DNA of 56,687 nt from an uncultured virus (IMG/VR IMGVR_UViG_3300045995_000154) (lineage: Duplodnaviria; Heunggongvirae; Uroviricota; Caudoviricetes), in IMG/VR virus record IMGVR_UViG_3300045995_000154. One strand, given 5' to 3'. Below the pieces are notes generated by a model. The model ran no database searches. It saw only the letters and a list, made by a program, of their open reading frames with translations, and had not been told where the DNA came from. A program made the position numbers and the translations under genes. Within the stretch, counting starts at the first letter, position 1. Every line of letters begins with the position of its first letter. Shown here piece by piece: positions 3,001-42,559 of the stretch.

Positions 3001-5938
3001 CAGATGTGAAGCTGCTTGCGCTTAATGTTGTAAAAGAACCAGTGCTGCCAGAGATTGGTGTGTTAGTAATTGCACCACCAGTTACTTGTGCATTGCTTGT
3101 TGTCAATACTGTTGCACCAACTGTCGAACCGCTAACTGGAGTACCAGTAATTGCGCCGCCAGTTACTTGAGCGTTAGCTGTAGTTACGCTTGTGGCATTA
3201 ACTGTAACACCGCTTAATGCGCCGCCAGTTGCTTGTAAGTTACCAGTTGTTGCTGTTGTGAAGCTACCTGTATCACCAGAGATTGGTGTGTTAGTAATTG
3301 CACCACCAGAAATCTGTGCGTTAGCAGTAGTCACCAAAGCAGAAGCTACGGATGTCATGCCAGTAGCAGAACCACCAGTTGCTTGCAAGTTGCTTGTAGT
3401 TACCGAAGTACCTTGTACAGTGGAGCCGCTGATTGGTGTACCAGTAATGTTACCACCTGTAATTTGTGCGCTACCAGTTGTTACTGTTGTAGAGCTTACA
3501 TTGGTCATACCAGTGATATTACCGCTTGTAGCTGTTAATCCACCAGTGCTTACGCTTGTGAATGTACCTGCTGCCGCTGTTGTAGCGCCGATTGGAGTTG
3601 CGTTGATAGCACCGCCACCGATAACTGCATTGTTAGTTGTAACATTTGTAGAGCTAACATCTGTCATTCCAGTTACGGAACCGCCAGTAGCTTGTAAGTT
3701 ACCTGTGCTTACGCTTGTGGCAGAAACAGTAGAACCGCTTACTGGTGTACCATAAATGTTGCCACCGGTGATAACTGCATTGCCTGTGCTGAAGTTAGTA
3801 GCAGAAGCTGTAGTTGCACTCAATGTTGTCAAGCCAGTTACAGAACCGCTTGTAGCTGTTAAGCCACCAGTTGTAACGTTAGTAAACGAACCAGTAGAAC
3901 CGCTGATTGGTGTGTTCTGGATATCACCACCAGTAACTTGTGCGTTAGCTGTTGTCAATACTGTGAACGAACCAGTGCTGCCGCTTACTGGAGTACCGCT
4001 GATATTACCACCAGTAATCTGTGCGTTAGCTGTTGTGAAGCTTGTAGCACCTAATGCTACGCCAGTTACGGAACCGCCAGTGATCTGTGCGTTGCTAGTT
4101 GTTACGCTTGTAGCGTCAACTGTCATACCGCTGATTGCACCGCCAGTTAATGTAGCTGAACCAGATGTCAATGTCGAGAACGAACCAGTGCTACCAGAGA
4201 TTGGGCTGCTTGTGATTGTAACACCAGACATTGTACCACCAGTAACTACTGCGTTAGCTGTTGTTACGCTTGTACCTTGTACAGTAGAACCGCTAACTGG
4301 GGTACCGCTGATTGCACCGCCAGTTACTTGAGCGTTAGCTGTTGTAACGGAAGTTGCAGAAACGGTAACACCGCTTAATGCGCCGCCAGTTGCTTGTAAG
4401 TTACCAGTTGTTGCTGTTGTGAACGAACCAGTGCTGCCGCTTACTGGTGTGCTAGTGATAGCGCCGCCAGAGATTTGAGCGTTGCCAGTTGTTACTGTTG
4501 TCGAGCTCAATGCTGTCATGCCAGTAGCAGAACCACCTGTAGCTTGTAAGTTACTTGTAGCAATGTTACCGTGGATTGTGCCGCCTACCCATAAGTCAAT
4601 AGCAACACCTGCACCACCAGCAGTTGTCAAGTCACCAGTTGTTGGGCTTGTGCTGTTTGTTACACCACTTAATGCTAATGCAGGAGCAGTAACATCTTTA
4701 TTTAAATTCCATGTATCTGTTGCTTGAACATAAGTTAATGTTGCGTTTGCACCAGCTACAGTTAAACCACCGCCGTCAGCTTGTGCTGCGGTTGTAGCGT
4801 CTTTGGCTACAGTGATGTTTAAGTCAGCAACCGCTACTGTTGTAGAGTTAACTGTTGTAGTTGTACCTGCAACTGTTAAGTTACCACCAATAACAGTATC
4901 GCCACCAACGTTTAAGTTCTTAGCAATACCAACACCGCCAGCAATAACTACAGCGCCATTGTTTGTCAATGTGCTTTGTGTAGCGTCTGTGAATGTTGTT
5001 GCGCCGTTAGCTGCTAACGATGTGAACGCACCAGTGGAAGGAGTTGCATTACCAACTGGAGTATTGTTGATGCTGCTGAATGTAGCAGGACCGCCAGTTA
5101 CTGTTGTGAATGTTGCTGCTGCAGGAGTTGTACCACCAATAACTGTACCGTTTACAGTGCCACCGGAGATAGTAGCTGTAGCGATAGTTGCTGTAGTAGC
5201 ACTTACGTTACCGTTGAATGTAGGAGCAGTTACAGCACCAGTTACAGCTAATGTACCAGAAACTGTTTCGTTACCAGCAACCACTACTGTGGTGCCAGTT
5301 AAAACAACGTTACCTGTACCATTGCCGCTTAAGTTCAAGCTACTGTTTGTAGTAGCTGCGGAAATAGTTGTGTCAGAAACTGTTAAGTTACCGAACGAAG
5401 CGTTGTTTGCAACACCCATTGTACCAGTGTATGTATAACCAACAATGTAAACAACCTTACCGCTTAAAGCTGTAGGGACGTTAGTGTCAGCAAAGTTTAA
5501 AACACCTGCTTGGTAGTCAAATATCCAAGCGTCATTGTTACCGGAACCGTCCGGTGCTAACAATGTACCAGTGCTTTGTGGATTTGCTGCGCCAGCTGTG
5601 TCAGCGTATGCCTTAACAGTGTAGCTCGAACCAAACTCTGGAGGAATCCATTTTGCGATACTTGTCAACCAAGTACGTGTAGATGGAACTACTGTAGGAT
5701 CAGCCGCAGCCATAATAGATGCGGTACCAGTGCGAACATGTACTACACCAGATGTAGAACCTGGTGCTGTACTTGGGATGTCACCAGATTGGTTCCATAG
5801 TGTGTCGCCACGAACCAATAGCGGGCTCGCTATTGCTTCGTTACTAGGAGATTTATTTCCTGCAACGTCTGTTTTAGTGACGCCGTATACTAACTTCTTG
5901 TACAGGTCGTCAATTTTTTGTGTATCGCTAATTGCCAT
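1..5938 (-). CDS. Giant Thr/Gly/Ser/Ala-rich repeat virion fibre/adhesin-like protein (>1979 aa, truncated at left window edge; not in ORF track)
   Basis: ATG at 5938-5936 after AGGAG RBS; starts MAISDTQKIDDLYKKLVYGVTKTD. The same frame reads ...GNVTPSTATFTTATATDV at position 2, and the track lists no stop-terminated ORF in this frame. Built of TGNAQITGG/TPISGSTGSF-type repeats; lies downstream of other structural genes. Confidence 0.9.
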   Translation of the reverse strand, partial: MAISDTQKIDDLYKKLVYGVTKTDVAGNKSPSNEAIASPLLVRGDTLWNQSGDIPSTAPGSTSGVVHVRTGTASIMAAADPTVVPSTRTWLTSIAKWIPPEFGSSYTVKAYADTAGAANPQSTGTLLAPDGSGNNDAWIFDYQAGVLNFADTNVPTALSGKVVYIVGYTYTGTMGVANNASFGNLTVSDTTISAATTNSSLNLSGNGTGNVVLTGTTVVVAGNETVSGTLAVTGAVTAPTFNGNVSATTATIATATISGGTVNGTVIGGTTPAAATFTTVTGGPATFSSINNTPVGNATPSTGAFTSLAANGATTFTDATQSTLTNNGAVVIAGGVGIAKNLNVGGDTVIGGNLTVAGTTTTVNSTTVAVADLNITVAKDATTAAQADGGGLTVAGANATLTYVQATDTWNLNKDVTAPALALSGVTNSTSPTTGDLTTAGGAGVAIDLWVGGTIHGNIATSNLQATGGSATGMTALSSTTVTTGNAQISGGAITSTPVSGSTGSFTTATTGNLQATGGALSGVTVSATSVTTANAQVTGGAISGTPVSGSTVQGTSVTTANAVVTGGTMSGVTITSSPISGSTGSFSTLTSGSATLTGGAISGMTVDATSVTTSNAQITGGSVTGVALGATSFTTANAQITGGNISGTPVSGSTGSFTVLTTANAQVTGGDIQNTPISGSTGSFTNVTTGGLTATSGSVTGLTTLSATTASATNFSTGNAVITGGNIYGTPVSGSTVSATSVSTGNLQATGGSVTGMTDVSSTNVTTNNAVIGGGAINATPIGATTAAAGTFTSVSTGGLTATSGNITGMTNVSSTTVTTGSAQITGGNITGTPISGSTVQGTSVTTSNLQATGGSATGMTSVASALVTTANAQISGGAITNTPISGDTGSFTTATTGNLQATGGALSGVTVNATSVTTANAQVTGGAITGTPVSGSTVGATVLTTSNAQVTGGAITNTPISGSTGSFTTLSASSFTSDSINNTPVGNAVPSTGAFTTLTSNGATTFTSNVQSTSTTTGAIVTAGGVGIAKNLNVGGDTIIGGNLTVNGTTTTVNSTSLSTVDNNITLAVGAIDNATADGSGLTVAGSGATFTYDGTADTWNVNKNFVAPDVTITSAVDATSTTTGSLNTAGGAGIVKDLWVGGVIHGAIATANLQATGGNISGITNFAATTGSVTNLSSGNVTVTGGTIDGTVIGATTAADGTFTTLFTANAQVTGGKATGLTTMSAVTGTVTNLSSGNVAVTGGTIVDTPISGSTGSFTTMTTAGAAITGGSATGLSAVSSTLVTTGNAQISGGAITSTPISGSTGSFTVMTTGNAQITGGSLSGVTVAVTSLSTANAIITGGNISNTPISGSTGAFTSVTTGPITATSGSVTGLTDLTSTNFASGNVTITGGTITGTPISGATVGATVLTTSNAQVTGGSVIGLTTLTATNGTVTNFASGNAQITGGNVTATSVTTGGAVITGGTIDATTIGATTPSTGAFTTLSTTGAASVNSLVTANVQATGGALSGVTVSATSLTTSNAQVTGGAITSTPISGSTGSFSTLTSGAVTLTGGSITGTTVSGSTVGATVLTTANAQISGGAIDGTVIGGTTAAAGTFTTMNATNVGGTLTTAAQPNVTSVGTLTSVAVSGAATLGATTANSLSTSAATITGGTVNGTVIGGVTPAAGTFTTVTAASFSATGGIDNTPIGANVASTGAFTTLSASNVVTITDTTQSTSTVTGALKVAGGVGIVKNLNVGGDAIVEGNLTVGGSVTTVNSTTVSVADKNITIAQGALTGAAADGAGITVDGPAAATILYTFATDTWNFNKDLVASAFTGNVVATTVGGTLTTAAQPNVTSVGTLTSLAVSGAASAGSVTTANAQVTGGAITGTPVSGSTGSFTTATAANLQATSGSVTGLTTLGATTGTITNLSSSNVTVTGGTIDGTVIGGTTRAAGSFTSVTADSFTAASINGTVIGNVTPSTATFTTATATDV
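707..4936. repeat. Three ~2.1-kb super-repeat modules plus near-identical 44-60 bp internal repeats in the giant fibre gene
   Basis: GGVGI(A/V)KNLNVGG...TVNSTT...ADG...DTWN block anchored at 707, 2825 and 4901 (spacing 2118 and 2076 nt). Exact repeats at 3204-3262/4365-4423 (59 bp) and 1287-1330/4161-4204 (44 bp); 395-454/1052-1111 differ by 1 mismatch. Confidence 0.85.
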
Positions 5939-5961
5939 TTTAATTATTCTCCTAGATTATA

Positions 5962-8832
5962 TTAGTGTGTCGCGTTCGGGAAGCTCAATGCTGTAATGCT
6001 ATCACCAGCTACTAATGCAAAACGTACAAAGATATAGTTATTAGTGCTGCTGTTACTAGATACTGTACCAAATGTTACTGTCTTGCTTTGTGTTACCACG
6101 GAACCTGTAGTAATAGCACCGCCCAATGCGCAACCTGTGCTGCCGTTACCGCCTGTACCAGTACCTGGAACACCTGCGCCGCCGTAAGCCACAGTAGCGT
6201 CGATCCAACCATTAGTTGGGGAAGCTGTTGTGTCTAAACTGCTGCCTGGCAATGCAACTTGCACGCCAGAGATCTTGCCTGTTACAGCAATGTCGAACTT
6301 AGATGTTGCATCACGAGTGATACGGAATGTAATGTATTGTGTACCAGTACGGCCAGTGCTTAAGTCTGGACCAACTGGGAAATAGCCTGTGCTGTAGTTT
6401 GTAGTATCGTTCTTGATAGTACCGCCTACAACTGTAGCTTCATATGTTGGTAATGCTGAGCTGCTTGTCCAGCTTGTGATGCTGCCTGTAGTTGGAGTAG
6501 CACCTGTAGCTAAACCACCAACACGTACTGCACTTGCTGCACCGCCGGAACCGAATGTACCAACAACGATGTTGTTTTCATTTGGTGTTGCTGTGCTTGC
6601 TGCATCAATACGTAATACGTTGCCGCCTGGTGTTAATGCCAAGCTGCCTGTTGCATAGCTGTTTGCTGCGCTTACTGTAGGACCTACGCTGCTTACGCCA
6701 GTGCTGTTAGCAATGGAAGCTGTTGTAGAAACTGTAGCGGAACCAGAAGCAACATACAAGTTACGTGCAGGAGGAACTGTTACGCCTGCTGCGGTGTATG
6801 TTACCGTAGCTGGTGCTTGGAACGAACCACCTGCAGTGCCAGTAAAGAAGCTGTCTGTAGCTGGGTATAAGTCACCAGTTAAACGATTTGCTGTACCGCT
6901 GTATGTCCAAACTGCACTGGAAGTGTAGTGAGGAACGCTTGAGCTGTATGCAACTACGTTAGAAGTCACTGCAAAGCTGCTTTGTGTAATAACTGGAGTA
7001 CCAGGAGCCGCAGAGTCATAGTACCACCCAACTGTATTTGTTGGTGTACCAGCTGTGTCTGTCAAGTATACATCGTTCCAACCGCCAGCAACTGTACCAG
7101 AAGCTGCCGCGTCAAAGGAGTACCAGAAGCCTAAAGCTTGAGCAGACTTGCTACCGTAGTCAGCGTTGTCACTGATAACTAAATCGCTGTATGTACCGTT
7201 GTTACCAGTGCCAGAAACGATTGTGTGGGAACCAGAGGAAGCGCCGTTCTTCATAACGGAAACTGTACCGGAATCACCAGGGCCAACGTCGTTAGCTGCG
7301 TTTGTTGCGTATGTGTTTACACGCTTGTATGCCGAAATAGTTGTACCACCAGCTACAGAACGGCCACCAGTACCACTGTTGTCTGTCTGTGTGAAGTTAG
7401 TCATACGTAAACCGCTGCTTAAGCTGCTTACTGTCAATGTGAACGGAGAACCAGGGAATGTAGATGGTTGAGTTGGAACCAACTTGCCTAATACTTCATT
7501 CAAACGGTCAACTGCATCAGTAATGTATGTACCTGTTGTCCATGTAGTAATAGCTGGGCTGTTGTCAACTAATGTTCCAGTAGTTGGGGTACCTAATTGG
7601 ATAACATTACCACGAACGCCGGCGCCTGCCAAGCTTTGTAAACTTAAATTACCTGCACCGTCAGATGTCATAACCGAAGCTGCAACACCGTCAACTTGAG
7701 GCATTGTCAATGCGCCGATTTTAACGGAGCCAGAGCTGCTTAAGTTTAAGTTGCCGCTTAGGGAAGAAATTGTGTTGTTAGCTACTTGTACATTTGCAAT
7801 GTTAGCTAAACCACCGATGTTTACATCCTTAGCAATACCAACACCACCCGCAGTTACGATAGAACCAGTAGTTGTGCTTGTGCTGTTTACGTTAGATGAG
7901 ACTGTAACGTCACCAGTTACGCCTAAAGTACCACCAACTGTAGCATTACCTGTTACTGTAGATGTACCGACTGTAGCTGTACCAGCAGTGCTGATATTAC
8001 CAGCAGTTGCGGTGCCTGTTACGCTTAAGCTTGTCAATGTGCCAACGGATGTTACATTTGGTTGTGCTGCTGTTTGCAACGTACCAGTAATGCCACCAGT
8101 GGATGTTAATGTTGTGAACGTACCTGCTGCTGCAACGTTTGCACCAATAACGGAACCGTTAATAGGTGTATTGCTAATTGCGCCGCCGGAAATTTGTGCA
8201 TTTGCAGTAGTTAATACTGTTGCTTGTACAGTAGAGCCAGAAACTGGTGTGCTTGTAATAGCGCCGCCACTGATCTGTGCATTGCCAGATGTTAAGTTTG
8301 TGATTGTTGCGTATGCAGACGAAATGTTACCGCTAAATGTACCACCAGCGCCAACGCTGAAGCTAGAAGCAGAAATCGAACCTGTAATGTCTACGTTGCC
8401 TGTTGCTGTTACATCGTGTGCTTTGATGTTGACAAAGCCAGAGTTGTTAACTCCTGTGACACCTTCGCCTGTGTCTGTTGTAGCAATTGCTACGAATGCG
8501 CTATCAGCTTCGCTCCATAACCAAGCTGTGTTAACTGCGCCGTAGCCAGTTAAGGTTGCTAAGTTACGATTGACTAAAATACCAATGTCATAGCCTGTTA
8601 AGCTACCAATGTATCCATTGTTGAACACAACCACCGGATCGTTAACGTAGGTATTAGTGGAATTAACAACGCTGGAGCCACCAGACACTGTTAAGTTACC
8701 AATAATACTAACGTTTGAGTTAAGGGTTAAGTTCGGGTTAAAGTTTGCACCAACAAGTGTTTGGTTGGCAATCTTTTGGTATGTAATTGTCGAATCAGTG
8801 ATCTGATTATTTTTAATTCTAGTTACGGCCAT
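5962..8832 (-). CDS. Virion structural/fibre protein, Thr/Gly/Ser-rich (956 aa)
   Basis: Long ORF with GGAG RBS and TAAATA late promoter upstream; shares TAAQPNVTSVGTL and GGVGIAK modules with the giant fibre. Confidence 0.8.
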   Translation of the reverse strand: MAVTRIKNNQITDSTITYQKIANQTLVGANFNPNLTLNSNVSIIGNLTVSGGSSVVNSTNTYVNDPVVVFNNGYIGSLTGYDIGILVNRNLATLTGYGAVNTAWLWSEADSAFVAIATTDTGEGVTGVNNSGFVNIKAHDVTATGNVDITGSISASSFSVGAGGTFSGNISSAYATITNLTSGNAQISGGAITSTPVSGSTVQATVLTTANAQISGGAISNTPINGSVIGANVAAAGTFTTLTSTGGITGTLQTAAQPNVTSVGTLTSLSVTGTATAGNISTAGTATVGTSTVTGNATVGGTLGVTGDVTVSSNVNSTSTTTGSIVTAGGVGIAKDVNIGGLANIANVQVANNTISSLSGNLNLSSSGSVKIGALTMPQVDGVAASVMTSDGAGNLSLQSLAGAGVRGNVIQLGTPTTGTLVDNSPAITTWTTGTYITDAVDRLNEVLGKLVPTQPSTFPGSPFTLTVSSLSSGLRMTNFTQTDNSGTGGRSVAGGTTISAYKRVNTYATNAANDVGPGDSGTVSVMKNGASSGSHTIVSGTGNNGTYSDLVISDNADYGSKSAQALGFWYSFDAAASGTVAGGWNDVYLTDTAGTPTNTVGWYYDSAAPGTPVITQSSFAVTSNVVAYSSSVPHYTSSAVWTYSGTANRLTGDLYPATDSFFTGTAGGSFQAPATVTYTAAGVTVPPARNLYVASGSATVSTTASIANSTGVSSVGPTVSAANSYATGSLALTPGGNVLRIDAASTATPNENNIVVGTFGSGGAASAVRVGGLATGATPTTGSITSWTSSSALPTYEATVVGGTIKNDTTNYSTGYFPVGPDLSTGRTGTQYITFRITRDATSKFDIAVTGKISGVQVALPGSSLDTTASPTNGWIDATVAYGGAGVPGTGTGGNGSTGCALGGAITTGSVVTQSKTVTFGTVSSNSSTNNYIFVRFALVAGDSITALSFPNATH

Positions 8833-11954: not shown

Positions 11955-12425
11955 TTAGTAAGATGCTACGTTAGCGTAAGCTGATGTAGCTGGGGTGTTA
12001 ACCTTGTACATAAACTTGTTGCCTGCGAAGTCATAAACGTGCTTTGTGCTGATACGACGAGCGTAGAAAGGTGCGCTTGCTGTGTCGTAACAAGCAATGC
12101 TTGCTTCGCCTGCTGCTAATGCGCCAGCGGCTTTGTTTACAAGTTGAACTACAGTGATATGAGTACCTGCTGCTGCGGAATCATCAACTAAGAACTTTGC
12201 AGAACCCTTTTGATTGATAACGAAGCCGTGTGCAACTGCTACACCAGCCAATGTCTTGTATTGTACGTCTATTGTCTTAACGCCCTTGCCGTTAACTGTG
12301 TTACTAACGCCACCCGTACCACCAAAACCAGACGCTTGACCTTGGTCTGCGCTGACTAAGCCGTCTACTGTGCTGCCCAATGGTGCTGCTGGTGCTTGAT
12401 TTGCTACTTTAATACCTTTTGCCAT
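11955..12425 (-). CDS. Putative abundant late structural protein (156 aa; probable start 12425 rather than 12488)
   Basis: AAGGAAAATAAA-ATG start MAKGIKVANQ; own late promoter (12505-12510) and own terminator. Confidence 0.7.
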   Translation of the reverse strand: MAKGIKVANQAPAAPLGSTVDGLVSADQGQASGFGGTGGVSNTVNGKGVKTIDVQYKTLAGVAVAHGFVINQKGSAKFLVDDSAAAGTHITVVQLVNKAAGALAAGEASIACYDTASAPFYARRISTKHVYDFAGNKFMYKVNTPATSAYANVASY

Positions 12426-12504
12426 TTTATTTTCCTTTGTTGTGAGCGTTCTAAGCCCCGCGGAGTGGCTACTCGCACGAGCTCTCATTTAAGAGCGAAC
12501 CAGA

Positions 12505-12510
12505 TATTTA
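12505..12510 (-). promoter_or_regulatory. Late promoter TAAATA
   Basis: Upstream of the structured leader of the 11955-12425 gene. Confidence 0.6.
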
Positions 12511-12520
12511 GCCATTTATG

Positions 12521-12549
12521 TTTACAGAATAATGCATTTAATGTACACT
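12521..12549 (+). promoter_or_regulatory. Sigma70-type (early) promoter for tRNA
   Basis: TTTACA-N17-TACACT, ending 8 nt before tRNA position 1. Confidence 0.6.
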
Positions 12550-12557
12550 GGATCTAT

Positions 12558-12634
12558 GCGTTATTAGCTCATTTGGTTAGAGCGGCGACTTCTAAACTCG
12601 ACGGTGCTCGGTTCGAATCCGGGATAACGCACCA
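12558..12634 (+). tRNA. tRNA with CUA anticodon (putative amber suppressor), encoded CCA
   Basis: Acceptor GCGTTAT/ATAACGC + A73 + CCA; D arm GCTC-ATTTGGTTA-GAGC; G26; anticodon arm GCGAC-TT CTA AA-CTCGA (CTA at 12592-12594, only central CGA/TCG pairs); 5-nt variable loop; T arm CTCGG-TTCGAAT-CCGGG. Confidence 0.85.
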
Positions 12635-12643
12635 AAGGACACT

Positions 12644-13036
12644 ATGAAAATTGGATTTACTGGTTCGAGAGAAGGAATGAGTGATTCCCAAGTCGAAAGC
12701 TTTTACATGCTTCTCGGTAAAATGGGTATGACTGAGTTTCATCATGGTGATTGCATGGGCGCAGACGCTGAGGCACACATGATAGTCCAAAACTCGTTCC
12801 CAGATGCCAGAATCGTAGTTCACCCACCAAAAGCACAGATAGCTCGTGCATATTGTGTGGGTGATGAGTTAAGACCCCAATTTGATTACTTGACGCGGGA
12901 CAAGAACATCGTAGATGAATGCGAGTTTTTGTTTGCTGCCCCAATGCGCAGCGTAGAAGAAGTACGATCTGGTACTTGGGCTACTGTGCGCTATGCTAGG
13001 AAAAAGTTTCGTCTGCACGTCGTGCTGCCGAGATAA
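12644..13036 (+). CDS. SLOG-superfamily (Smf/DprA/YspA-like) nucleotide-binding protein
   Basis: KIGFTGSR, HHGDCMGAD, RDKNIVD and SGTWATVRYARK motifs; AAGGA RBS immediately after tRNA CCA. Confidence 0.7.
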   Translation: MKIGFTGSREGMSDSQVESFYMLLGKMGMTEFHHGDCMGADAEAHMIVQNSFPDARIVVHPPKAQIARAYCVGDELRPQFDYLTRDKNIVDECEFLFAAPMRSVEEVRSGTWATVRYARKKFRLHVVLPR

Positions 13037-13116
13037 ATATTTTTGTTACTCGGTTGTAGCAAATCTGGACTTTAATAAATTGTGCTTGTAGTCCAAAGCA
13101 GTAAAAAGGAAACATA

Positions 13117-14001
13117 ATGATGTACAATCAAAAGCTCGTTGCGAGCCTAAAAGCTAACGGCAAAATCTTACGTGAGTTCAAGGATACAGTTTATATCCCA
13201 TTCGGCTCAGAATACTCCATAGTTCTTAAAAATCTCAACACGGTCCGCGCCATCGTAAACATTACGCTTGACGGTACTGATGTCTGTCCTGGCGGCTTAG
13301 TGCTGCTCGCAGGACAAACCATTGATTTGGAACGCTGGATCAAGAACGGCAACCTCTCAGCAGGCAATAAGTTCAAATTCATTGAGCGCACTGCACAAAT
13401 CGAAGCACATAAGGGCATTGGTATCGAAGACGGTATCATCAACATCTCGTATCAGTTCGAACACCTACCAATTACATTCGCTGGAACTACGATTTGGGAC
13501 TACCAACAAAACGTGTGGAAGCAGCAACATACTGGCTTGCGCCAAGATGGAATGATTTTCAAGGGACTAGGTAACACCATCTCCCAAGTTAACAATGCAC
13601 AATGGAGCAGCGGTGACGCCACCTTCAGCAGCAATGAGCCAGTACCATTCAAGTCGAGCATTGCTCGCAGTGTACTTGCGTCTGGTGCTTCCGCATCCGT
13701 TACCAATGCATCGTTGAACAATGTGACTGCGCAAGCACAGAACGTAAGCTATAACGATGCTGGCATCACCGTTGCTGGTTCCAAGAGCGATCAAAAGTTT
13801 GCTACTGCAAGCTGGTTCCCAGTGCTGCCAGAAAAGCATTCCATTGTGCTTAAACTGTTGGGTGAAACCCCTGACAATAAGCCCGTGCTGCTACCAGTTA
13901 CAGTAAAAGCAAAGCCAAAGTGCACTACTTGCGGCAAAATGAACAAAGCGAATGCAAAATTTTGTACAGAATGCGGCACAGCACTTGAAATCTTCGCGTA
14001 A
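13117..14001 (+). CDS. Hypothetical protein with C-terminal zinc ribbon (CTTC...CTEC)
   Basis: 294-aa ORF, AAGGA RBS, TAAATA at 13034-13039; KCTTCGKMNKANAKFCTECGTAL. Confidence 0.8.
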   Translation: MMYNQKLVASLKANGKILREFKDTVYIPFGSEYSIVLKNLNTVRAIVNITLDGTDVCPGGLVLLAGQTIDLERWIKNGNLSAGNKFKFIERTAQIEAHKGIGIEDGIINISYQFEHLPITFAGTTIWDYQQNVWKQQHTGLRQDGMIFKGLGNTISQVNNAQWSSGDATFSSNEPVPFKSSIARSVLASGASASVTNASLNNVTAQAQNVSYNDAGITVAGSKSDQKFATASWFPVLPEKHSIVLKLLGETPDNKPVLLPVTVKAKPKCTTCGKMNKANAKFCTECGTALEIFA

Positions 14002-14018
14002 TTGTGCTAGACTAAATA
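13985..14018 (+). promoter_or_regulatory. Overlapping sigma70-type (TTGAAA-N17-TAGACT, extended -10 TG) and late (TAAATA) promoters
   Basis: TTGAAA 13985-13990, TG 14005-14006, TAGACT 14008-14013, TAAATA 14013-14018; both would initiate at or near ATG 14023. Confidence 0.55.
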
Positions 14019-14022
14019 CATA

Positions 14023-14130
14023 ATGCAATAGATTAACTATTACCCTTTTAGCCCGGACCAGAGCTTCCAATTAGAGGAAGAGTTCTCGTACGGGCTTTTT
14101 TACGATCATTTTAACCAAGGAGAAATCAAA
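14023..14130 (+). promoter_or_regulatory. Leaderless amber-interrupted leader ORF (MQ*INYYPFSPDQSFQLEEEFSYGLFYDHFNQGEIK), in frame with pth2-like gene
   Basis: ATG CAA TAG at 14023-14031, then 33 sense codons to ATG 14131 (offset 108 nt). Confidence 0.6.
14050..14101 (+). terminator. Terminator/attenuator-like hairpin within the pth2 leader
   Basis: AGCCCG(14050-55)/CGGGCT(14091-96) base stem, inner AGAGC/GTTCT and TTCC/GGAA pairings, T-run 14096-14101. Confidence 0.6.
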
Positions 14131-14505
14131 ATGAAATAGATAGACGGCAAACACTACTGCTACACCTTTATTCGCTCGGACTTACCAATCGAGACTCAAA
14201 TTGTGCAAGCTGCCCATTCCGCACAGGAATCCGGGCGGGATTTCAAGAATCGAAATCCAACAACAAACACGTTCCTAGTATTACTAGAGGCTAAGAACGA
14301 AGCAGCGTTGATGAAGGCCGGTGATCACTTGATCAACAACGGCATTAAATTTCACATGTTCCACGAGCCTGACTATGAGACAGGGTTTACAAGTCTTACG
14401 ACTGAACCTATCTACTACGAAGAGCAAAAGGAAATTTTCAAGAAGTTTAGTTTGTACAAATTCCGTGCAAGCAAAGCATACAGCATAATGGATAAAGGAG
14501 AATAA
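14131..14505 (+). CDS. pth2: Pth2-superfamily peptidyl-tRNA hydrolase-like protein with in-frame TAG at codon 3
   Basis: AAGGAGA RBS then ATG AAA TAG ATA GAC..., in frame with the 14203 ORF. Readthrough gives MK*IDGKHYCYTFIRSDLPIETQIVQAAHSAQE...LVLLEAKNEAAL...FHEPDYETGFTSLTTEP...FKKFSLY, i.e. the R.DL...Q..H, VL....E..L and EPD....T....P pattern of Pth2-like proteins. The track's GTG start would delete the RSDL strand. Confidence 0.8.
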
Positions 14506-14506
14506 A

Positions 14507-15079
14507 ATGGAAATGGTTTGTAAAGAAGTTGTGTTTCACTTCAACAAGAAGCACTTAGAAGACCCCACTATCCCAATGTGGGTTATCAAAACTAAAGGCA
14601 AAACATACTACGTCGAGCACGTTGAATGTAACATGCCTTGGAGCACTAAAGAGACTAAGGATAACCCGCACACCAAAGGTAGCTTTAAGTTCAAGGACTG
14701 TCACTTGACGATAGACGACAATAACGAGGCGACAATACGTTCTGCGACGAATCACGATAAGAGTGTTTTGCGCAATACCGCTAAGGGCATTACCCGTGTT
14801 ATTACTAAGTGGGGCAAGCAGTTGCAGGACTCGTTACAAAGCTTAGAGGTTAAGCATGGGCCCATAAAAACTATTGGTGGTGTTTGCACTACTACTTTCT
14901 ATGTAACTGATGTACACAAGAAGGATGAGTTGACTGCACTGTTGCTCACTGTAAAGGACTTGCGTGAGTTGATGCCGAACGAGCCGTACTATAAAATGTA
15001 TGATGAGGCGGTTACTAAGAACGTTGACTACTTTGACGAGGATGAGTATTATGATGAGTCTGACGATTCCGAAGAGTGA
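14507..15079 (+). CDS. Hypothetical phage protein with acidic tail
   Basis: 190-aa ORF, AAGGAG RBS overlapping the pth2 3' end. Confidence 0.8.
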   Translation: MEMVCKEVVFHFNKKHLEDPTIPMWVIKTKGKTYYVEHVECNMPWSTKETKDNPHTKGSFKFKDCHLTIDDNNEATIRSATNHDKSVLRNTAKGITRVITKWGKQLQDSLQSLEVKHGPIKTIGGVCTTTFYVTDVHKKDELTALLLTVKDLRELMPNEPYYKMYDEAVTKNVDYFDEDEYYDESDDSEE

Positions 15080-15212
15080 CGTAACCGCAGTGCTTAAATA
15101 TTTGCAAGAGAATAAGATTAAGCACTACCCGTTTACCAAATTAGTTAACGGGTACGAGATCACAGTAGAGAAGGATGAGCTTGTTAGCTTCTTACTTTTG
15201 AAGTATACTTAA
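15051..15212 (+). CDS. Small hypothetical protein (~53 aa)
   Basis: GAGG RBS before ATGATG at 15051; stop overlaps the convergent stop of the radical SAM gene. Confidence 0.5.
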   Translation: MMSLTIPKSDVTAVLKYLQENKIKHYPFTKLVNGYEITVEKDELVSFLLLKYT

Positions 15213-17116
15213 GATTGAATCCATATTATCTTTTTGTTCAGGGCAGTTTGGGCATTGGTCCACTGCCCCGTTCCTACATAGTGATGTGTAAAGCTTTTGT
15301 CTGGGTGTATAGGTAAGCGCCATTCGTCGTTGTCTTGCAACGCAAATACAAAGTCTGCATTCCACTCACCGTCATCAGTTATACTAAAGTTGTATGTTGC
15401 ATCGTAACGGTCAACCATCATAACGTCACCAAATGCGACTAAGTCTTCCTCGCGGTTGAAACGCAGTGTAATCTCAAAGCCACCAGCTACTCTATACATT
15501 AGCCGTAAAAATGCCCATATCTCATTCATTAGCGTGTCAGCAAAATTACCAAGATCAGTTTTGATAATGTTGAAGTCAAAATCATCTAGCGTAATATTGT
15601 CTGGCGGGTTAACTAACTTTAGCTTAGATAGTGTATAGTGCGAGTCAATGTCGCGGCGCTGAGTATTGAATAACACGCCGTTATTATAGCAAATGTCTAG
15701 CCAGATATTAAGCAGTTTCATTCTCACAAGCCTGTGCACTTTTGTATTACTCAGATCTTTAGAATACCACCATCCCCAAAACTTGTCGTCCCAATTGCTC
15801 ATGCTGTATTGCTCTCGGTTGAACTCAAAGTCTGTTCCTCTGCTATCGCCCAATGTCATGCCCGTGCTTATTAGATCCATGTAGTTACGGTTGTTCCACA
15901 GTAGTATCAAGCTGTCATTGTGTGCTTTGATGTTCTCATTAGGAAAGCCTACTATCCAGTTAACATGCACAGTAATGCCTGCGTTTTTACAATCGCGCAT
16001 GTTGGCATCTATCTCAGAGACCATAACCTTCTTCTTCATTAAGTCCAGTACTTTTTGTGAGCCGCTTTCAACGCCAAAGCTTAGATAGTGGGCGCCGCTG
16101 TCCTTTAAGTCTTTGAAGTAATCTGCATCCATACGCCCGTCACAGCGTACATACCCCATCCAACTAATATTGAACTGCTTCTCAATGGCGCCTTTTGCAA
16201 ACGTGCGCAACTCTTTGAGATTGCCGTTAACTAAGCTATCAATAAACCATACATAGGTGATACCGTAGTTCTTAATTTGGTCTTCTACTTCGTCCAATAT
16301 GCGGTTAGCTTGGCGGTCTCTAAACTTCCAGAACCAAGTCTCTGTGCAGAAGCTACACTTAGCCACACAGCCGCGGTTGATCTCTGCGCTAACGCCCGTA
16401 CCGTTTGTATACAAAGACAAATCAAATTCGCTGTAGTCAGGGAAAGGCAAGCTATCAATATCAACGCGGGAATCACTGTACGAGGTACCTAGTTTCTTAG
16501 TCTCTGGCAGTACGTTGTTTTCAAAGTTCTCAAGCATGTCTAACAGGATTTGCTCTCCCTCACCAACAACGTAGTAATCAATTTCGTCTATTGCCTCATA
16601 CTCTGGATTGTGGCAGGATGGTCCACCTGCAATAACTAGCACAAATGGCAAGCGTTTCTTAAGTTCACGTATCATCCAATACGTAGGTACTTTGTTTGTG
16701 TCGTAAATGCTAAATCCAACAACGGTAGGATTTGATGCCACAATCTTGTCTAAGTAAGCAGCATAATGAGGCAATGCCGCATCGTGCAATTTGTCTTGGT
16801 AGTTGCCATCGTTCCACCAATAGTAATTGATAGAGTCCCACGCTTTGTCTAAGCCATTAGATTTGAATGTGGTATACAAGTCTACGTTGAAATCAAAGGA
16901 TCTAGTAGCATAGCCTGCTTCTTTAGTTAAGGCAGATAACCTAGCGATGTTATAAGGTGCAAAGTATACGCCCCAACAACCCATCATAACTAGAGTAAGC
17001 CTAGTTTTCCTAGTAACGTTGTGTTCGTATATTACGGGATTTACGTTTTTACGTCGTGGTTTAGCAGTGTTTGCTACCATGGTCTCAGCTGACCATACGT
17101 GTTTGTCTTGTTCCAT
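15209..17116 (-). CDS. Cobalamin-binding-domain radical SAM enzyme (class B-like)
   Basis: VVGFSIY...IAGGP...VVGEGEQ B12-binding domain, LPFPDY, RGCVAKCSFC (CxxxCxxC), FGVESGSQKVLDLMKK, WIVGFPNE; TAAGTA 5 nt before ATG. Confidence 0.9.
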   Translation of the reverse strand: MEQDKHVWSAETMVANTAKPRRKNVNPVIYEHNVTRKTRLTLVMMGCWGVYFAPYNIARLSALTKEAGYATRSFDFNVDLYTTFKSNGLDKAWDSINYYWWNDGNYQDKLHDAALPHYAAYLDKIVASNPTVVGFSIYDTNKVPTYWMIRELKKRLPFVLVIAGGPSCHNPEYEAIDEIDYYVVGEGEQILLDMLENFENNVLPETKKLGTSYSDSRVDIDSLPFPDYSEFDLSLYTNGTGVSAEINRGCVAKCSFCTETWFWKFRDRQANRILDEVEDQIKNYGITYVWFIDSLVNGNLKELRTFAKGAIEKQFNISWMGYVRCDGRMDADYFKDLKDSGAHYLSFGVESGSQKVLDLMKKKVMVSEIDANMRDCKNAGITVHVNWIVGFPNENIKAHNDSLILLWNNRNYMDLISTGMTLGDSRGTDFEFNREQYSMSNWDDKFWGWWYSKDLSNTKVHRLVRMKLLNIWLDICYNNGVLFNTQRRDIDSHYTLSKLKLVNPPDNITLDDFDFNIIKTDLGNFADTLMNEIWAFLRLMYRVAGGFEITLRFNREEDLVAFGDVMMVDRYDATYNFSITDDGEWNADFVFALQDNDEWRLPIHPDKSFTHHYVGTGQWTNAQTALNKKIIWIQS

Positions 17117-26786: not shown

Positions 26787-26819
26787 CCTATAAATAAGAG
26801 TATATCGATTATTTATAGG
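26787..26819. promoter_or_regulatory. Face-to-face pair of perfect T4 late promoters forming an 11-bp inverted repeat
   Basis: TATAAATA plus strand 26789-26796 and minus strand 26810-26817; CCTATAAATAA...TTATTTATAGG. Confidence 0.8.
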
Positions 26820-29171: not shown

Positions 29172-30179
29172 TCACCAAGCAGTAGCGTAATTTTCATTCA
29201 TAACCTTGCTACTGCATTTTGTTTTGCACTCTTGCCACTTAAACTCTTGGAATTCAGTAGTCCAAAATGCATCTTCAAGTACATTCTGCATTGATCTAGT
29301 ATGCAAGTCAAACTTATTTGCAATCTCTTGCCACTCGGAATTGTGTCCGTATCGATTAGCTACCCAGCAGCATGGGAACACCCTGCCGCGAGAATCCAAG
29401 TATAAGCCCTTGTTTCCTATGCCGCACAGCGGAATAATCGGGGTTTTACCCTTGTTTTTGTTGAATAGCACCGTGTTAATGCTGTGCACTGGTGTAGGTA
29501 ATCTATGCGTAAATTGTGTTATTTCCCGCTCGAAGCGGTGTGTGCTGCTTACAAACTTTACACTAGGTTCCAACGGATCATTTACCCCGTACGAGTTATA
29601 TATTGACCCGAACTTTGTGCTCTTGGTAAGTTGGAATCGATCCATACCAAGGAACCTTGCTGATCCCTTCATGTGCTCTATGTGCTCTTCGTTAAACTTA
29701 AATGCAATAGCCGCCCAAACAATTTGGCAATCGCTAGCAGCACGAAGGGCAGAAATTCCGTCAATAATGCTATGGTAGTCACTATTAACCCTATACAGGT
29801 TATTAGAAGTAAAATCATAGCCGTCGACAGAAAAGTGTACAGAGTCCTTGCTAGTGAGGGTTCGTCCCAAGTCTTTCCACCACTCAGCCTTTTTGTAGCT
29901 ACCGTTGGTAACGATGACAATTTCAACATCTTTTATGCTTTTTATGTATTTGATAATCCTCACCAAATCATGTGCGTATATAGGGTCACCATCGTCACCG
30001 CAGAACGTAATTTTTTCAACGTCAGAGACAATAAACGACGGTGAAAACGCCTTCATAAAGAAGGTAAGATCAAGTTCTGTATTTATCAATGAACCTGGCA
30101 CCTCTTGACGAGCGCAGCGAGGGCACTTCAATGTGCACTTGCTGCTGATCTCAATATGCCAATGCCAAGTTGCTAACAT
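29172..30179 (-). CDS. Radical SAM protein with Twitch/SPASM-like C-terminus
   Basis: HIEISSKCTLKCPRC, FCGDDGDP, VTNGS, FSVDG; C...GLYLDSRGRVFPCCW...ECKTKC. Confidence 0.88.
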   Translation of the reverse strand: MLATWHWHIEISSKCTLKCPRCARQEVPGSLINTELDLTFFMKAFSPSFIVSDVEKITFCGDDGDPIYAHDLVRIIKYIKSIKDVEIVIVTNGSYKKAEWWKDLGRTLTSKDSVHFSVDGYDFTSNNLYRVNSDYHSIIDGISALRAASDCQIVWAAIAFKFNEEHIEHMKGSARFLGMDRFQLTKSTKFGSIYNSYGVNDPLEPSVKFVSSTHRFEREITQFTHRLPTPVHSINTVLFNKNKGKTPIIPLCGIGNKGLYLDSRGRVFPCCWVANRYGHNSEWQEIANKFDLHTRSMQNVLEDAFWTTEFQEFKWQECKTKCSSKVMNENYATAW

Positions 30180-33969: not shown

Positions 33970-34703
33970 TTGCTCCACTCCATATATTTATCGCTTGTCA
34001 CTGCCTCAATAATTGCAGAAGCTTGCTCGTCTTTACCATAATGGATCTGTAATGTGGCCCATGTAGAGTGTATTTCTGAAAAATTAGTTCTAACACACGG
34101 TAAGTTTACATAGTCTAACATCGCTCTAATAGATTTTTCGAAATCTGTAAATAGATCTCCAATTTCAAAAGAAAACAGTTTATCAGGCACACTATATAAC
34201 GGTTCGTTTTCAGCCGCATGTTGTTTAAAGATGTAGTATGATAGAAATTCTCTTTTTTGCCATTCCTGCAAATTATCGTATTTCTTACTTCCCCAGGCAC
34301 TGACGTTTTCTTCTAATTCGTTGGCTTGGTTAGCCATCCAACCATCAGCCCAAATTTTGTCAAATTTATTGTTTATCGTAAGTAAGGTGTGTTTACTGGT
34401 AGTTAAGTATATTGCTTTGCCGGTGCTTTGCAAAATTTCTGAGATCACATCTTGCAACACGTCAAATTTTGACGTTTTGGGGTGTACACGGTATATTGGT
34501 GCAGTATGCTGATGGGAATCAAAATTCCTCCATTCAGAAATACCAATAAGTGCATCGCCAGCTTCATACTGGTGGCTGCTCCCATTTGGAAAAAATGGGA
34601 ACCCTGATTCGACCACTAACCCTGAAAAATATAGCAGTGCCCAATGTACAAATGTACCATAATACCCACCATTATATATTATCGGGACCGCCTTATTCGT
34701 CAT
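33834..34703 (-). CDS. Hypothetical protein, sulfotransferase-like P-loop family (paralogue 1; probable start 34703)
   Basis: YNGGYYGTFVHW...PFFPNGSSH; ATG overlaps gp55 3' end (ATGACGAATAA). Confidence 0.6.
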   Translation of the reverse strand: MTNKAVPIIYNGGYYGTFVHWALLYFSGLVVESGFPFFPNGSSHQYEAGDALIGISEWRNFDSHQHTAPIYRVHPKTSKFDVLQDVISEILQSTGKAIYLTTSKHTLLTINNKFDKIWADGWMANQANELEENVSAWGSKKYDNLQEWQKREFLSYYIFKQHAAENEPLYSVPDKLFSFEIGDLFTDFEKSIRAMLDYVNLPCVRTNFSEIHSTWATLQIHYGKDEQASAIIEAVTSDKYMEWSNLTLVDEAFIQMSLRDSHNLDMLCYNLNVFPTNTTDLRKILINGG

Positions 34704-35634
34704 AATCTCCTCCGCCACCTCCGCCAGAGGACATGCCTTGTCTAGTGTACGATGGATTTAGTCCATTGATTTCCAAAATGTCGTCGCGTATATTTTGATT
34801 ACGCTTTTCGATATTTAGAACACGAGTAAATGAATTTGTGATTGCTGCGGTGTAGTAAGCGAATGGATTATCTGATTTGGCTTCGTCAAAGCGTAAGCCA
34901 ATTTGGGAAAGCTGTAGCAATGCCTGCGCCCGCATTTCATCATTGTAAGTGTATCCGCGCCAGTTAGAACGAGTAGCATAACGCTCACACAGCTTAACGA
35001 ACATGTGTGCAAGCTTGTTTGTCATAGCGCCCTTATCCTTGGTAAACGAACCAGTATCAAATGGACCTTCCCAATGGGACTTGCCTACTAGCGTAAGTTC
35101 ACCATTTTCCATTTTGTAATGCATAAAGGGCGGGAAGTTGCAGCGTGTGTACTTCTTGAACTTTGGATCGACTGGTTCGTCTTCAACATCATATTCGGAA
35201 TGGGGAATATCGTCATCAACGTAATCAGCTACTTTCTTGCCTTTCTTAGTGTCGTCTAACGGTACATGTTCCCATGTCATTACACGAAAAACAACGTCGT
35301 CTGGTTGAATAGTGTCCCATTCCACAGTAGCTAGTTCACTTCTGGGCTTTTTGCCAGCAGCAAGTTCAATTTCTTGGGATAGCTTGGTAAGTCGTGTTGC
35401 CCGTGCTGTAAGTGCTTTTGGTGGAACTCTAGTAGTTACTTTGGATTTAACACCGTCTTCGCTGATTTCCTCCTTGGTTTCGATAGTTTCCAAAAATAGT
35501 TTCGGGATTTCGTTAACGTGATTGACGATTACATCATATTCGGAGTAATCCGGCTTAGTGAATGTACAGTACGTTGTCTTTGATTTATGAATCTCTTTCA
35601 AGATGTCTTTATTGTTGAGATAATTTACCTTCAT
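34693..35634 (-). CDS. gp55: Late-transcription sigma factor, T4 gp55-like, with large N-terminal insertion
   Basis: NYLNNKDIL N-terminus; RSNWRGYTYNDEM...FDEAKSDNPFAYYT...NSFTRVLNIEKRNQ; upstream of gp47-gp46 as in T4. Confidence 0.85.
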   Translation of the reverse strand: MKVNYLNNKDILKEIHKSKTTYCTFTKPDYSEYDVIVNHVNEIPKLFLETIETKEEISEDGVKSKVTTRVPPKALTARATRLTKLSQEIELAAGKKPRSELATVEWDTIQPDDVVFRVMTWEHVPLDDTKKGKKVADYVDDDIPHSEYDVEDEPVDPKFKKYTRCNFPPFMHYKMENGELTLVGKSHWEGPFDTGSFTKDKGAMTNKLAHMFVKLCERYATRSNWRGYTYNDEMRAQALLQLSQIGLRFDEAKSDNPFAYYTAAITNSFTRVLNIEKRNQNIRDDILEINGLNPSYTRQGMSSGGGGGGDYDE

Positions 35635-42551: not shown

Positions 42552-42559
42552 TATAAATA
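42552..42559 (+). promoter_or_regulatory. Perfect T4 late promoter TATAAATA
   Basis: 17 nt upstream of gp6 ATG. Confidence 0.75.

Follow-up and report, generated by a model that had tools for sequence, protein, structure and literature searches.

A phage amber-suppressor tRNA gene beside a Pth2-fold hydrolase gene with a conserved early TAG: a probable suppression-controlled module

What does a suppressor transfer RNA (tRNA) decode in a phage that uses the standard genetic code? The question is raised by a 56,687-nucleotide (nt) stretch of DNA from an uncultured virus of the Caudoviricetes (IMG/VR record IMGVR_UViG_3300045995_000154), called here the window, which is part of a 134,351-bp phage contig. 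Positions 12558-15079 of the window form a small plus-strand island, flanked by minus-strand blocks that include head genes, and this island holds a tRNA gene with the anticodon CUA and a gene for a hydrolase-like protein of the Pth2 fold whose third codon is TAG. An earlier note, made from the sequence alone, proposed that expression of the hydrolase requires the readthrough of UAG twice. The analysis reported here indicates that the island is probably a phage module in which the tRNA(CUA) controls a Pth2-fold tRNA-ester hydrolase through two UAG checkpoints. A translational gate at codon 3 of the hydrolase gene is well supported by the comparative evidence and is considered highly probable. 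The other checkpoint, a leader that would act as an attenuator sensing suppression, is coherently inferred from the anatomy of the locus and is rated at about even. The features on which the argument turns are the following.

12558..12634, plus strand: amber-suppressor-type tRNA gene with anticodon CUA at 12592-12594 and CCA encoded (ARAGORN; Rfam RF00005)
14023..14031, plus strand: leader mini-open reading frame (mini-ORF) ATG CAA TAG, without an upstream Shine-Dalgarno (SD) sequence (from the sequence; conserved in nine loci)
14032..14130, plus strand: frame behind the leader TAG, open across the terminator to the ATG of the gene (frame count in nine loci; 95% variant)
14050..14101, plus strand: imperfect GC-rich hairpin (14050-14096) and T run (14096-14101), resembling an intrinsic terminator (RNA folding; RNAalifold)
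14117..14122, plus strand: SD sequence AAGGAG, 8 nt 5' of the ATG at 14131 (from the sequence; AAAGGAG is kept before the ATG in relatives)
14131..14505, plus strand: Pth2-fold hydrolase-like gene of 124 codons, with TAG as codon 3 (14137-14139) and TAA at 14503-14505 as its end (sequence, Pfam, AlphaFold, Foldseek)

The tRNA gene is the only one that ARAGORN finds in the window, with the anticodon CTA at position 35, and the Rfam tRNA model scores it at 51.5 bits against a gathering score of 29, in agreement with the first reading of the sequence. Its anticodon loop reads UUCUAAA and has the U33 and the purine at position 37 that are expected of a nonsense-suppressor tRNA. A cognate in-frame TAG, the other mark of such a tRNA, exists at codon 3 of the hydrolase gene, which is the only such gene in the genome. 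The tRNA is presumed to be charged and to suppress. Comparison with 268 other phage tRNAs gave no clear answer on the isotype, Lys-like tRNAs being the commonest best match (8 of 44). One further ARAGORN call was made in the 134-kb genome, an odd 98-nt tRNA-Val(aac) at C1:104520-104617.

The genome in which this tRNA is found uses the standard code, as the earlier note had held when it set aside code-15 recoding. Under code 11, 96% of the 134,351-bp genome is coding, and its long ORFs end in TAA 92 times, in TGA 26 times and in TAG six times. In the window, the corresponding tally of long non-overlapping ORFs is TAA 35, TGA 9 and TAG 5. All five TAG-ended ORFs lie, in other frames or on the opposite strand, inside the 3574-codon open frame 45965-56686, and on account of this nesting they are counted as spurious. 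The open frame itself (at least 3574 codons, plus strand) contains no stop of any type and runs off the end of the window as a giant structural protein, the first 1500 residues of which match the PHROG virion structural family phrog_10938. A genome scan for an SD sequence, ATG, up to seven codons, a stop and a long ORF yielded one TAG case with a late first start, namely the hydrolase gene. Rereading the whole genome with TAG as a sense codon lengthened no other credible gene and gave one doubtful 29-codon extension besides the hydrolase gene. In-frame TAGs in many genes and a gain in coding density, the signs of code 15, were thus not found. A second candidate TAG gene, at 5439-5996 of the window, was rejected and appears non-coding.

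The hydrolase gene begins with ATG (14131), AAA, TAG (14137-14139) and ATA, and the frame is then open to the TAA. The first canonical start past the TAG is a GTG at 14203, 21 codons behind it. The AlphaFold model has a mean predicted local distance difference test (pLDDT) score of 90.3; residues 3-15 are placed inside the fold, and the first ten residues have a pLDDT of 86. When the model was compared with Foldseek, the top 11 matches were all chains of the Pth2 or Bit1 family at probability 1.0, with template modelling (TM) scores of 0.61-0.75, and the solved Pth2 structures 1q7s, 2zv3, 1wn2, 3erj and 1xty matched at probability 1.0 with TM scores of 0.63-0.75 and an identity of 14-19%. Neighbours in the ESM Atlas are viral PTH2 clusters (scores 0.93-0.94), and a profile built from 47 relatives picks up solved Pth2 chains weakly, with E-values between 7.5e-4 and 0.47. 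Judged from the model, the product has the Pth2 alpha/beta fold, so that the Pth2-like gene with a ribosome-binding site and an ATG AAA TAG start, as first described, is borne out by sequence and structure prediction alike. The model also places the residues right after the TAG in the fold, and no alternative start could supply them. Across the family D81 never varies, and conservation is also seen at H29, Q26 and R15. The family is phage-borne and comprises 1659 cluster representatives at E <= 1e-10; among 185,579 prokaryote species genomes that were scanned, the sole match was on a short contig of a metagenome-assembled genome.

The position of the TAG turned out to be a property of the family. 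DNA for family members was taken from viral contigs, metagenome contigs and GenBank phages; the C-terminal fragments L027 and L029 were left out together with L133, identical genes were collapsed to give 86 unique genes, and L126 was re-scored by hand. An early stop, that is, an ATG followed by zero to four sense codons and a stop, was TAG in 48 of these genes, TGA in one and TAA in none. The same architecture in 1246 other ORFs of at least 90 codons at the same loci was found with TAG in 22, TAA in 16 and TGA in 15 cases (Fisher p = 5e-47 for the enrichment of the early TAG in the family). The place of the stop was tallied in 48 genes (47 with TAG and one with TGA, L126 not included): it is codon 3 in 34 of them, codon 2 in two, codon 4 in five, codon 5 in four and codon 6 in three. 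The sense codons ahead of it vary freely, and the base that follows it is mostly A (32 of the 48), less often G (14) or C (two), and never T. The stop is followed by ATT, ATA or ATC in 26 genes, by GTN in 13 and by AAC, AAT, ACT, CAC or GAC in nine. Between the stop and the beta-1 strand of early-stop genes, tables read by eye show an in-frame ATG in none and GTG or TTG in few.

In a maximum-likelihood tree the early TAG fills well-supported clades parted by long branches, with 19 of 20 rows in the clade of the window and 8 of 8 and 7 of 7 rows in two others; at least five changes are forced, and none of 500 shuffles was equally clustered. Complete early-TAG genes themselves end in TAA or TGA in 43 of 45 cases. 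Both TAGs of the window, the leader TAG and that of codon 3, recur in a 95% variant whose assembly comes from an independent run, and this, together with the 48 relatives, disposes of the concern that the TAGs might be errors or unique to this genome. Internal TAGs past which the homology continues were seen in five genes (L001/L094, L131, L026, L059 and L066), and reading TAG as sense raises the coding coverage of few relatives (L066 from 0.68 to 0.91; L030 from 0.66 to 0.87), which appear recoded. The glutamine at position 3 of the proteins P0003, P0005-8, P0010 and P0016 is suspected to be a TAG read by a code-15 gene caller and not a CAG, because 'MKAALQV' in P0018 matches 'MKAAL-TAG-V' in L009 and neither CAA nor CAG occurs at this place in any member for which DNA is available. 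Comparison of the sequences thus indicates that the early stop is a conserved trait of the family and not a private mutation.

The second line of evidence is the linkage of the family to suppressor tRNAs. A suppressor tRNA was found in the fetched flank of 49 of the 86 unique loci, in every case on the strand of the gene, at a median distance of 366 nt and within 500 nt in 30 of the 49. Flanks with exactly one tRNA have a suppressor in 23 of 28 loci. At early-stop loci the suppressor tRNA lies 5' of the gene in 24 of 28; at plain loci it follows the gene in 14 of 21, in many of them at a distance of about 36 nt. The sole early-TGA gene (L018 = L065 = L114, one contig) reads ATG GAA TCG TGA and has a tRNA(UCA) 178 nt upstream, and its contig is sister to the TAG-bearing L021/L067 with tRNA(CUA) (support 97/78). 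Two more phage records carry a tRNA(CUA) about 40 kb from the gene: G001, in its tRNA regions, and G002, a complete genome of 345 kb that is standard-code (coding fraction 0.909 vs 0.923 with TAG as sense). The check suggested at the outset, whether relatives conserve the M-x-TAG start and co-occur with CUA tRNAs, was in this way answered strongly in the positive (early TAG in 48/86, suppressor tRNA in 49/86).

Other decoding elements were noticed at family loci. Genes for transfer-messenger RNA (tmRNA) are adjacent in six unique loci, and a phage tmRNA lies within a few kb of the gene and the suppressor tRNA in L010/L099, L015, L016/L113, L020/L071, L104, L105 and L027/L029. An ochre-type tRNA(UUA) stands next to a plain family gene at L107 2761. 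Odd ARAGORN tRNAs occur at L005 5975-6051, L022 3488-3562 and L088 5717-5790, one with a four-base anticodon (ttgt) and two with two-base ones (ca, tc); one of the latter two directly adjoins a tRNA(CUA). In L058, L060 and L062, which form part of one plain clade, the family gene ends in TAG, and in L060 and L062 a tRNA(CUA) gene starts 12-22 nt after it, so that readthrough would enter the tRNA gene. In G002 (L009/L098), at about 255,690-256,043 (L146:13740-14150), an upstream ORF ends in TAG and the same frame is then open for 116 codons with PVGPV-type repeats; in this standard-code jumbo phage, suppression is thus a candidate means of extending a protein at its C-terminus.

The early TAG is also present in eight cultured phages: Pectobacterium CBB, Serratia BF, Cronobacter GAP32, Xanthomonas XbC2, Yersinia fHe-Yen9-04, Ralstonia RsoM2USA, Salmonella Arash and Acinetobacter ME3. 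In seven of the eight a tRNA(CUA) lies within 5 kb of the gene. Because the third codon is a stop, this phage gene family has been systematically mis-annotated or missed: the gene is truncated in CBB_406 and GAP32_397 and missing from the BF, fHe-Yen9-04 and RsoM2USA records. The 'peptidyl-tRNA hydrolase' coding sequence 5172-5324 of the Arash record (L156) is a truncated call of the early-TAG gene, and the 'tRNA-Phe' of the same record (L156 6310-6384) is read by ARAGORN as tRNA(CUA). No early stop was found in RaK2, XacN1, Xoo-sp13, CM1 and Hallingskeid; in the last four the domain is fused behind a longer N-terminus. The passages of the CBB, Eneladusvirus and Arash papers that matched the search do not mention suppressor, amber or stop codon. 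The part of the XacN1 paper devoted to this subject describes two tRNA(CUA) genes and the reading through of 18 amber stops, with no target found (PMC5852040).

The region ahead of the hydrolase gene provides the material for the second checkpoint. In the window the leader is in frame with the gene, 108 nt upstream of it, and the two starts have 10 of 11 nt in common, as had been pointed out before. The motif ATGNAATAGAT occurs three times in the window against 0.11 expected, and none of 100 shuffles reached three. An ATG-NNN-TAG-AT without an SD sequence is found 93-108 nt 5' of the ATG of the gene in nine loci (that of the window, L003, L030, L033, L042, L047, L049, L075 and L092). The order is the same in all nine: the leader, a GC-rich hairpin, a conserved GGGTTTTCTTTTGAC-like tract, the SD sequence and the gated start. 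An AT-rich box precedes the leader by 4-8 nt in eight of the nine (sequences read by eye), and a tRNA(CUA) lies upstream within 3 kb in eight of the nine. The leader and the start of the gene carry the same 12 nt, ATG-NNN-TAG-ATT, in L047 and L092. L036 and L041 have longer leader ORFs, whose TAG falls within the hairpin.

The stop of the leader and the frame behind it are constrained. ATG-NNN-stop leaders at this place with an open frame behind them end in TAG in nine cases and in TAA or TGA in none. Past the TAG, the leader frame contains no stop up to the SD region in any of the nine loci; the other two frames contain 16 and 18 stops, and each is open in one of nine. In L042 and L075 the leader frame ends in an ATGA overlap with the start of the gene. 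Over the leader-to-gene stretch the 95% variant has six listed differences, five of them non-synonymous, and none makes a stop (codons read by eye). These counts suggest that the leader frame is kept open though the peptide itself is not conserved. A scan of the 47 loci for leader ORFs with any stop gave TAG 13, TAA 7 and TGA 8, a mild TAG bias; only the fixed two-codon leader is specific. The hairpin starts 28-39 nt after the ATG of the leader in the nine loci, so that a ribosome released at the UAG would leave it free. RNAalifold finds eight consensus stem pairs, five of them with compensatory changes, and the stems differ in sequence. A short ORF preceding or overlapping an intrinsic terminator 5' of a gene is the structure of a leader-peptide attenuator. 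A T-box-like reading of the leader UAG was dropped after an Rfam search at E <= 1 over 12000-15000 revealed no riboswitch and no T-box.

Taken together, the anatomy and its conservation, the match of stop and anticodon, and the Pth2 fold allow a mechanism to be proposed, of which translation of the leader and termination at the hairpin are inferred parts. At the gate, ribosomes would initiate at the SD-served ATG 14131 and encounter UAG at codon 3. There, decoding by the phage tRNA(CUA) would compete with release factor 1 (RF1) and with drop-off of the short peptidyl-tRNA, and only decoding would yield the hydrolase. The 190-amino-acid ORF that follows, translationally coupled, is probably gate-dependent as well. 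At the leader, when the UAG is not suppressed, the ribosome would exit after two codons, 19-30 nt before the hairpin; the terminator would fold and transcription would stop. When it is suppressed, the ribosome would cross the terminator in the open frame and block the hairpin, and RNA polymerase would continue into the gene. With two such checkpoints, the output of hydrolase would rise steeply with suppressor activity relative to RF1. The proposal that hydrolase expression requires UAG readthrough twice is in this form retained in part: a second amber checkpoint is supported by the ATG-NNN-TAG conserved in nine loci, and a single protein made through two readthroughs is unlikely because leader and gene are in frame in only five of the nine loci, the leader has no SD sequence, a terminator lies between and the intervening region evolves like non-coding DNA. 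An attenuator and a separate translational gate fit better than one twice-read-through protein.

As to the role of the hydrolase, it is tentatively proposed, by analogy, that the enzyme is a homeostat following the logic of prfB, cleaving suppressor-tRNA esters or clearing the peptidyl-tRNA by-products of readthrough. Suppression would in this way be self-limiting as the dosage of the tRNA gene rises during replication. This role is favoured because prfB and attenuators make products that affect the very thing being sensed; alternatively, the arrangement may time some unrelated activity. The most complete version, a code-sensing circuit in which the tRNA switches on the enzyme by leader antitermination and then codon-3 readthrough, and the enzyme acts back on suppressor-tRNA esters or by-products so that a set point is held, is speculative and judged unlikely.

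Several findings weigh against the proposed module. The anticodon stem of the window tRNA is weak, with two non-standard pairs in the Rfam alignment, read as G.A and C.C. The early stop is absent from 37 of the 86 family genes, which start normally, and many of these are still beside a suppressor tRNA; the gate would thus be superimposed on the linkage rather than underlie it. No suppressor tRNA was found in the fetched flank of 37 of the 86 loci, many of them on short contigs, nor within 5 kb of the gene in RsoM2USA. The 25 kb examined of the G003 fragment hold two UCA tRNAs (L090 14521-14592 and 16933-17003) and no CUA, although the family gene there carries TAGs. The covariation of stop and anticodon depends on one contig. 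The closest protein relative, P0002 (95% identical), has a lysine at the position of the TAG in the window, from which it follows that the gate can be lost. The match to Pfam PTH2 (PF01981) has E 1.1e-3 and 19.6 bits, under the cut-off of 23, over profile positions 6-115 of 115. The catalytic residues of the Sulfolobus Pth2 are the Lys of a G-K motif and a conserved Asp; in the profile alignment the '..GK' of solved Pth2 chains stands opposite a two-residue gap and a Gln in the family, and the conserved Lys has no counterpart. Given this missing Lys and the unmet Pfam cut-off, the substrate may differ from classical peptidyl-tRNA. As for the leader, all nine loci in which it was seen belong to the clade of the window; it has no SD sequence, and its translation could be leaderless or by re-initiation. 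A simple terminator scan did not list the hairpin of the window, the whole 144-nt fold has a z of only -1.1, and a promoter scan of the region gave six promoter-like matches against 5.0 expected, which is chance level. A search for RNA runs that contain the stretch listed none.

One alternative view is that the codon-3 gate alone is functional, the leader being a by-product, for instance of recombination or duplication, and the hairpin the terminator of the upstream operon. Besides the missing SD sequence, the chance-level promoter matches and the restriction to one clade, it can draw on the position of the hairpin, about 50 nt past the stop of the ORF 13117-14001 as for an ordinary terminator, and on the variability of the 5' end of the gene. 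In two independent runs the contigs are broken to either side of this end, at about 14062-14199, and nearly all differences between P0002 and the window fall in the first 20 residues, which gives the end the look of a place where variation or exchange is concentrated. A by-product would hardly be expected, however, to keep its frame stop-free over the terminator in nine of nine loci whatever its frame relative to the gene, with the other frames open in one of nine each, to end always in TAG at a fixed distance of 93-108 nt, or to share 12 identical nt with the start of the gene in L047 and L092. This view is accordingly held to be rather unlikely, though it is the alternative to be taken most seriously.

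The remaining alternatives concern the gate itself. The ATG and the early stop could form a true two-codon mini-ORF, the hydrolase being made by re-initiation or from a non-canonical start (ATA, ATT or GTN) without suppression. Some of the codons ATT, ATA, ATC and GTN are weak starts in bacteria, and one of them follows the stop in 26 (ATT/ATA/ATC) and 13 (GTN) of the 48 genes; in the other nine the codon is AAC, AAT, ACT, CAC or GAC, and the spacing of the SD sequence suits the ATG and not a codon 9 nt downstream. Re-initiation would moreover be indifferent to the type of stop, whereas the family has TAG 48, TGA 1 and TAA 0 against a background of 22:15:16, and it explains neither the linkage to suppressor tRNAs nor the tRNA(UCA) beside the sole TGA gene; this makes it very improbable. 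Hardly more credit is given to minigenes of the lambda bar type that release dipeptidyl-tRNA and titrate host Pth or tRNA, with the hydrolase merely lying behind. The succession of SD, AUG, one codon and stop is the bar architecture, realised with the stop at codon 3 in 34 of 48 relatives, and the gene behind it has the fold of a peptidyl-tRNA hydrolase. The near-exclusive use of TAG, the freely varying sense codon and the tRNA linkage would all be left unexplained, and the frame behind the stop encodes the conserved N-terminus of the fold and has no other start. Minigene action is compatible with a gate, as drop-off may compete with other outcomes when a ribosome reaches the UAG. Finally, the TAGs could be errors, marks of a decaying pseudogene or signs of a genome-wide code 15. 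A single C>T or A>T change turns CAG or AAG into TAG, P0002 has Lys, and L066 and L030 look recoded; the presence of both TAGs in the 95% variant from the other run, the retention of TAG in 48 of 86 diverged genes, its restriction to one stereotyped place within the gene, and the standard code of the window genome and of G002 do not fit such an origin, which is left with almost no probability. Suppression of the early UAG thus remains the preferred reading of the hydrolase gene.

Three other ORFs complete the island.

12644..13036, plus strand: 130-amino-acid ORF right behind the tRNA gene (ORF list; weak PHROG match to phrog_289)
13117..14001, plus strand: 294-amino-acid ORF with a C-terminal zinc ribbon (Pfam Zn_Ribbon_1, E 3e-7)
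14507..15079, plus strand: 190-amino-acid ORF that starts 1 nt past the hydrolase stop and has an acidic tail (homologues; alignment)

Homologues of the 130-residue ORF lie near the family gene in eight loci and those of the 294-residue ORF in 13 loci, the window included in both counts; the former has no Pfam, NCBIfam or PADLOC match. Homologues of the 190-residue ORF were found in 15 loci, 12 of which are early-stop loci. Its protein has a conserved N-terminal domain of about 80 residues with 20 invariant columns in 14 sequences and an AlphaFold pLDDT of 82.3; it showed no match to a solved fold at E <= 0.001 and no Pfam or PHROG match. Annotation of the neighbours with Pfam, PHROGs, NCBIfam and PADLOC left most of them without assignment, the only PADLOC match being a weak one to PDC-M24B (E 0.006).

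The wider genome encodes a major head protein, a portal, a prohead protease, baseplate genes, SbcCD-like genes and a gp55-like late sigma factor, the last in the window at 34693-35631 (minus strand). Three exact TATAAATA words at 26789-26796, 26810-26817 and 42552-42559 of the window stand each just 5' of gene starts, namely those of a divergent pair at 26.8 kb and of a baseplate wedge gene; their total count is at chance level, and the word is absent upstream of the 12558-15079 island. Two radical S-adenosylmethionine (SAM) proteins are encoded on the minus strand at 15209-17116 and 29172-30179, the first of 635 residues and of the B12-binding and radical SAM type. At 12423-12496 (minus strand) there is a weak match to the Rfam freshwater-2 RNA, with 30.6 bits where the gathering score is 49.9 (E 0.046); it occupies the 5' leader of the ORF 11955-12488, on the minus strand, and reaches as far as an AAAGGA...ATG start.

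If the leader works as proposed, it would be a natural counterpart of engineered amber-dependent attenuators, of which an amber-dependent tna leader reportedly made by Liu et al. in 2011 is an example, and a new sensor of decoding capacity. Should the full code-sensing circuit prove true, no earlier natural attenuator would have been keyed to the suppression of a stop codon; the circuit would also account for the 'orphan' suppressor tRNAs of standard-code phages and could mark a stepping stone to full TAG recoding. The cultured phages offer a minimal system for asking how the reassignment of a stop codon starts, and the tight linkage of a Pth2-fold enzyme to suppressor tRNAs, together with the tmRNA genes in six loci, points to a new step in the handling of readthrough.

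Each part of the proposed module has a relative among known systems. In the autoregulation of prfB, the gene for release factor 2 (RF2), an early in-frame UGA and +1 frameshifting sense RF2. The early in-frame stop in a termination-related gene, tying its output to the decoding of that stop, is common to both; there the ribosome shifts frame, whereas here the stop would be read in frame by a dedicated tRNA. In attenuation of the pyrBI type, a ribosome trailing the polymerase blocks the terminator hairpin. Here too a short leader ORF overlaps an intrinsic terminator 5' of the regulated gene and the progress of the ribosome would decide termination, but the decision would hang on whether a suppressor tRNA decodes a stop, the third codon of a leader without an SD sequence, and no antiterminator is evident. 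Lambda bar minigenes are free-standing units with TAA or TGA as their stop, and they are harmful to hosts poor in Pth. They resemble the start of the hydrolase gene, and that of 34 of 48 relatives, in the succession of SD, AUG, one sense codon and stop and in the functional tie to peptidyl-tRNA hydrolase; they differ in that the unit is here the 5' end of a hydrolase-like ORF with a TAG matched to the tRNA, and in that its upstream copy has no SD sequence. Archaeal and eukaryotic Pth2 share with the family the alpha/beta fold and an R-x-D-L ... Q-x-x-H-A motif; the family is set apart by its identity of 14-19%, its Pfam score below the cut-off, the absence of the conserved-Lys residues from its profile and its phage-borne distribution.

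The literature searched, supplements unopened, contained no description of a Pth2-like gene linked to suppressor tRNAs, of a conserved codon-3 stop or of a natural amber-sensing attenuator. Code-15 phages with suppressor tRNAs have been described (Borges et al., bioRxiv 10.1101/2021.08.26.457843; Peters et al., PMC9523058), and by search count 'Peptidyl-tRNA hydrolase' occurs 0 times in the former preprint. A phage tRNA(CUA) reads in-frame TAG in phage genes within a standard-code host there as well, and a function in the timing of expression was proposed. The present case differs in its standard-code genome, in the confinement of the stop to a single gene family and to codons 2-6, in the linked tRNA, and in the leader and terminator of one clade. 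Closest in setting are the orphan suppressor tRNAs of the XacN1 type, which are likewise tRNA(CUA) in standard-code jumbo phages, as far as the passages concerned go; the homologue of XacN1 itself is fused and has no early stop. Where these passages report no target (PMC5852040), the early-TAG hydrolase gene supplies a concrete one for the suppressor tRNAs of standard-code phages, being their candidate target in CBB, GAP32, BF, XbC2, fHe-Yen9-04, Arash and ME3.

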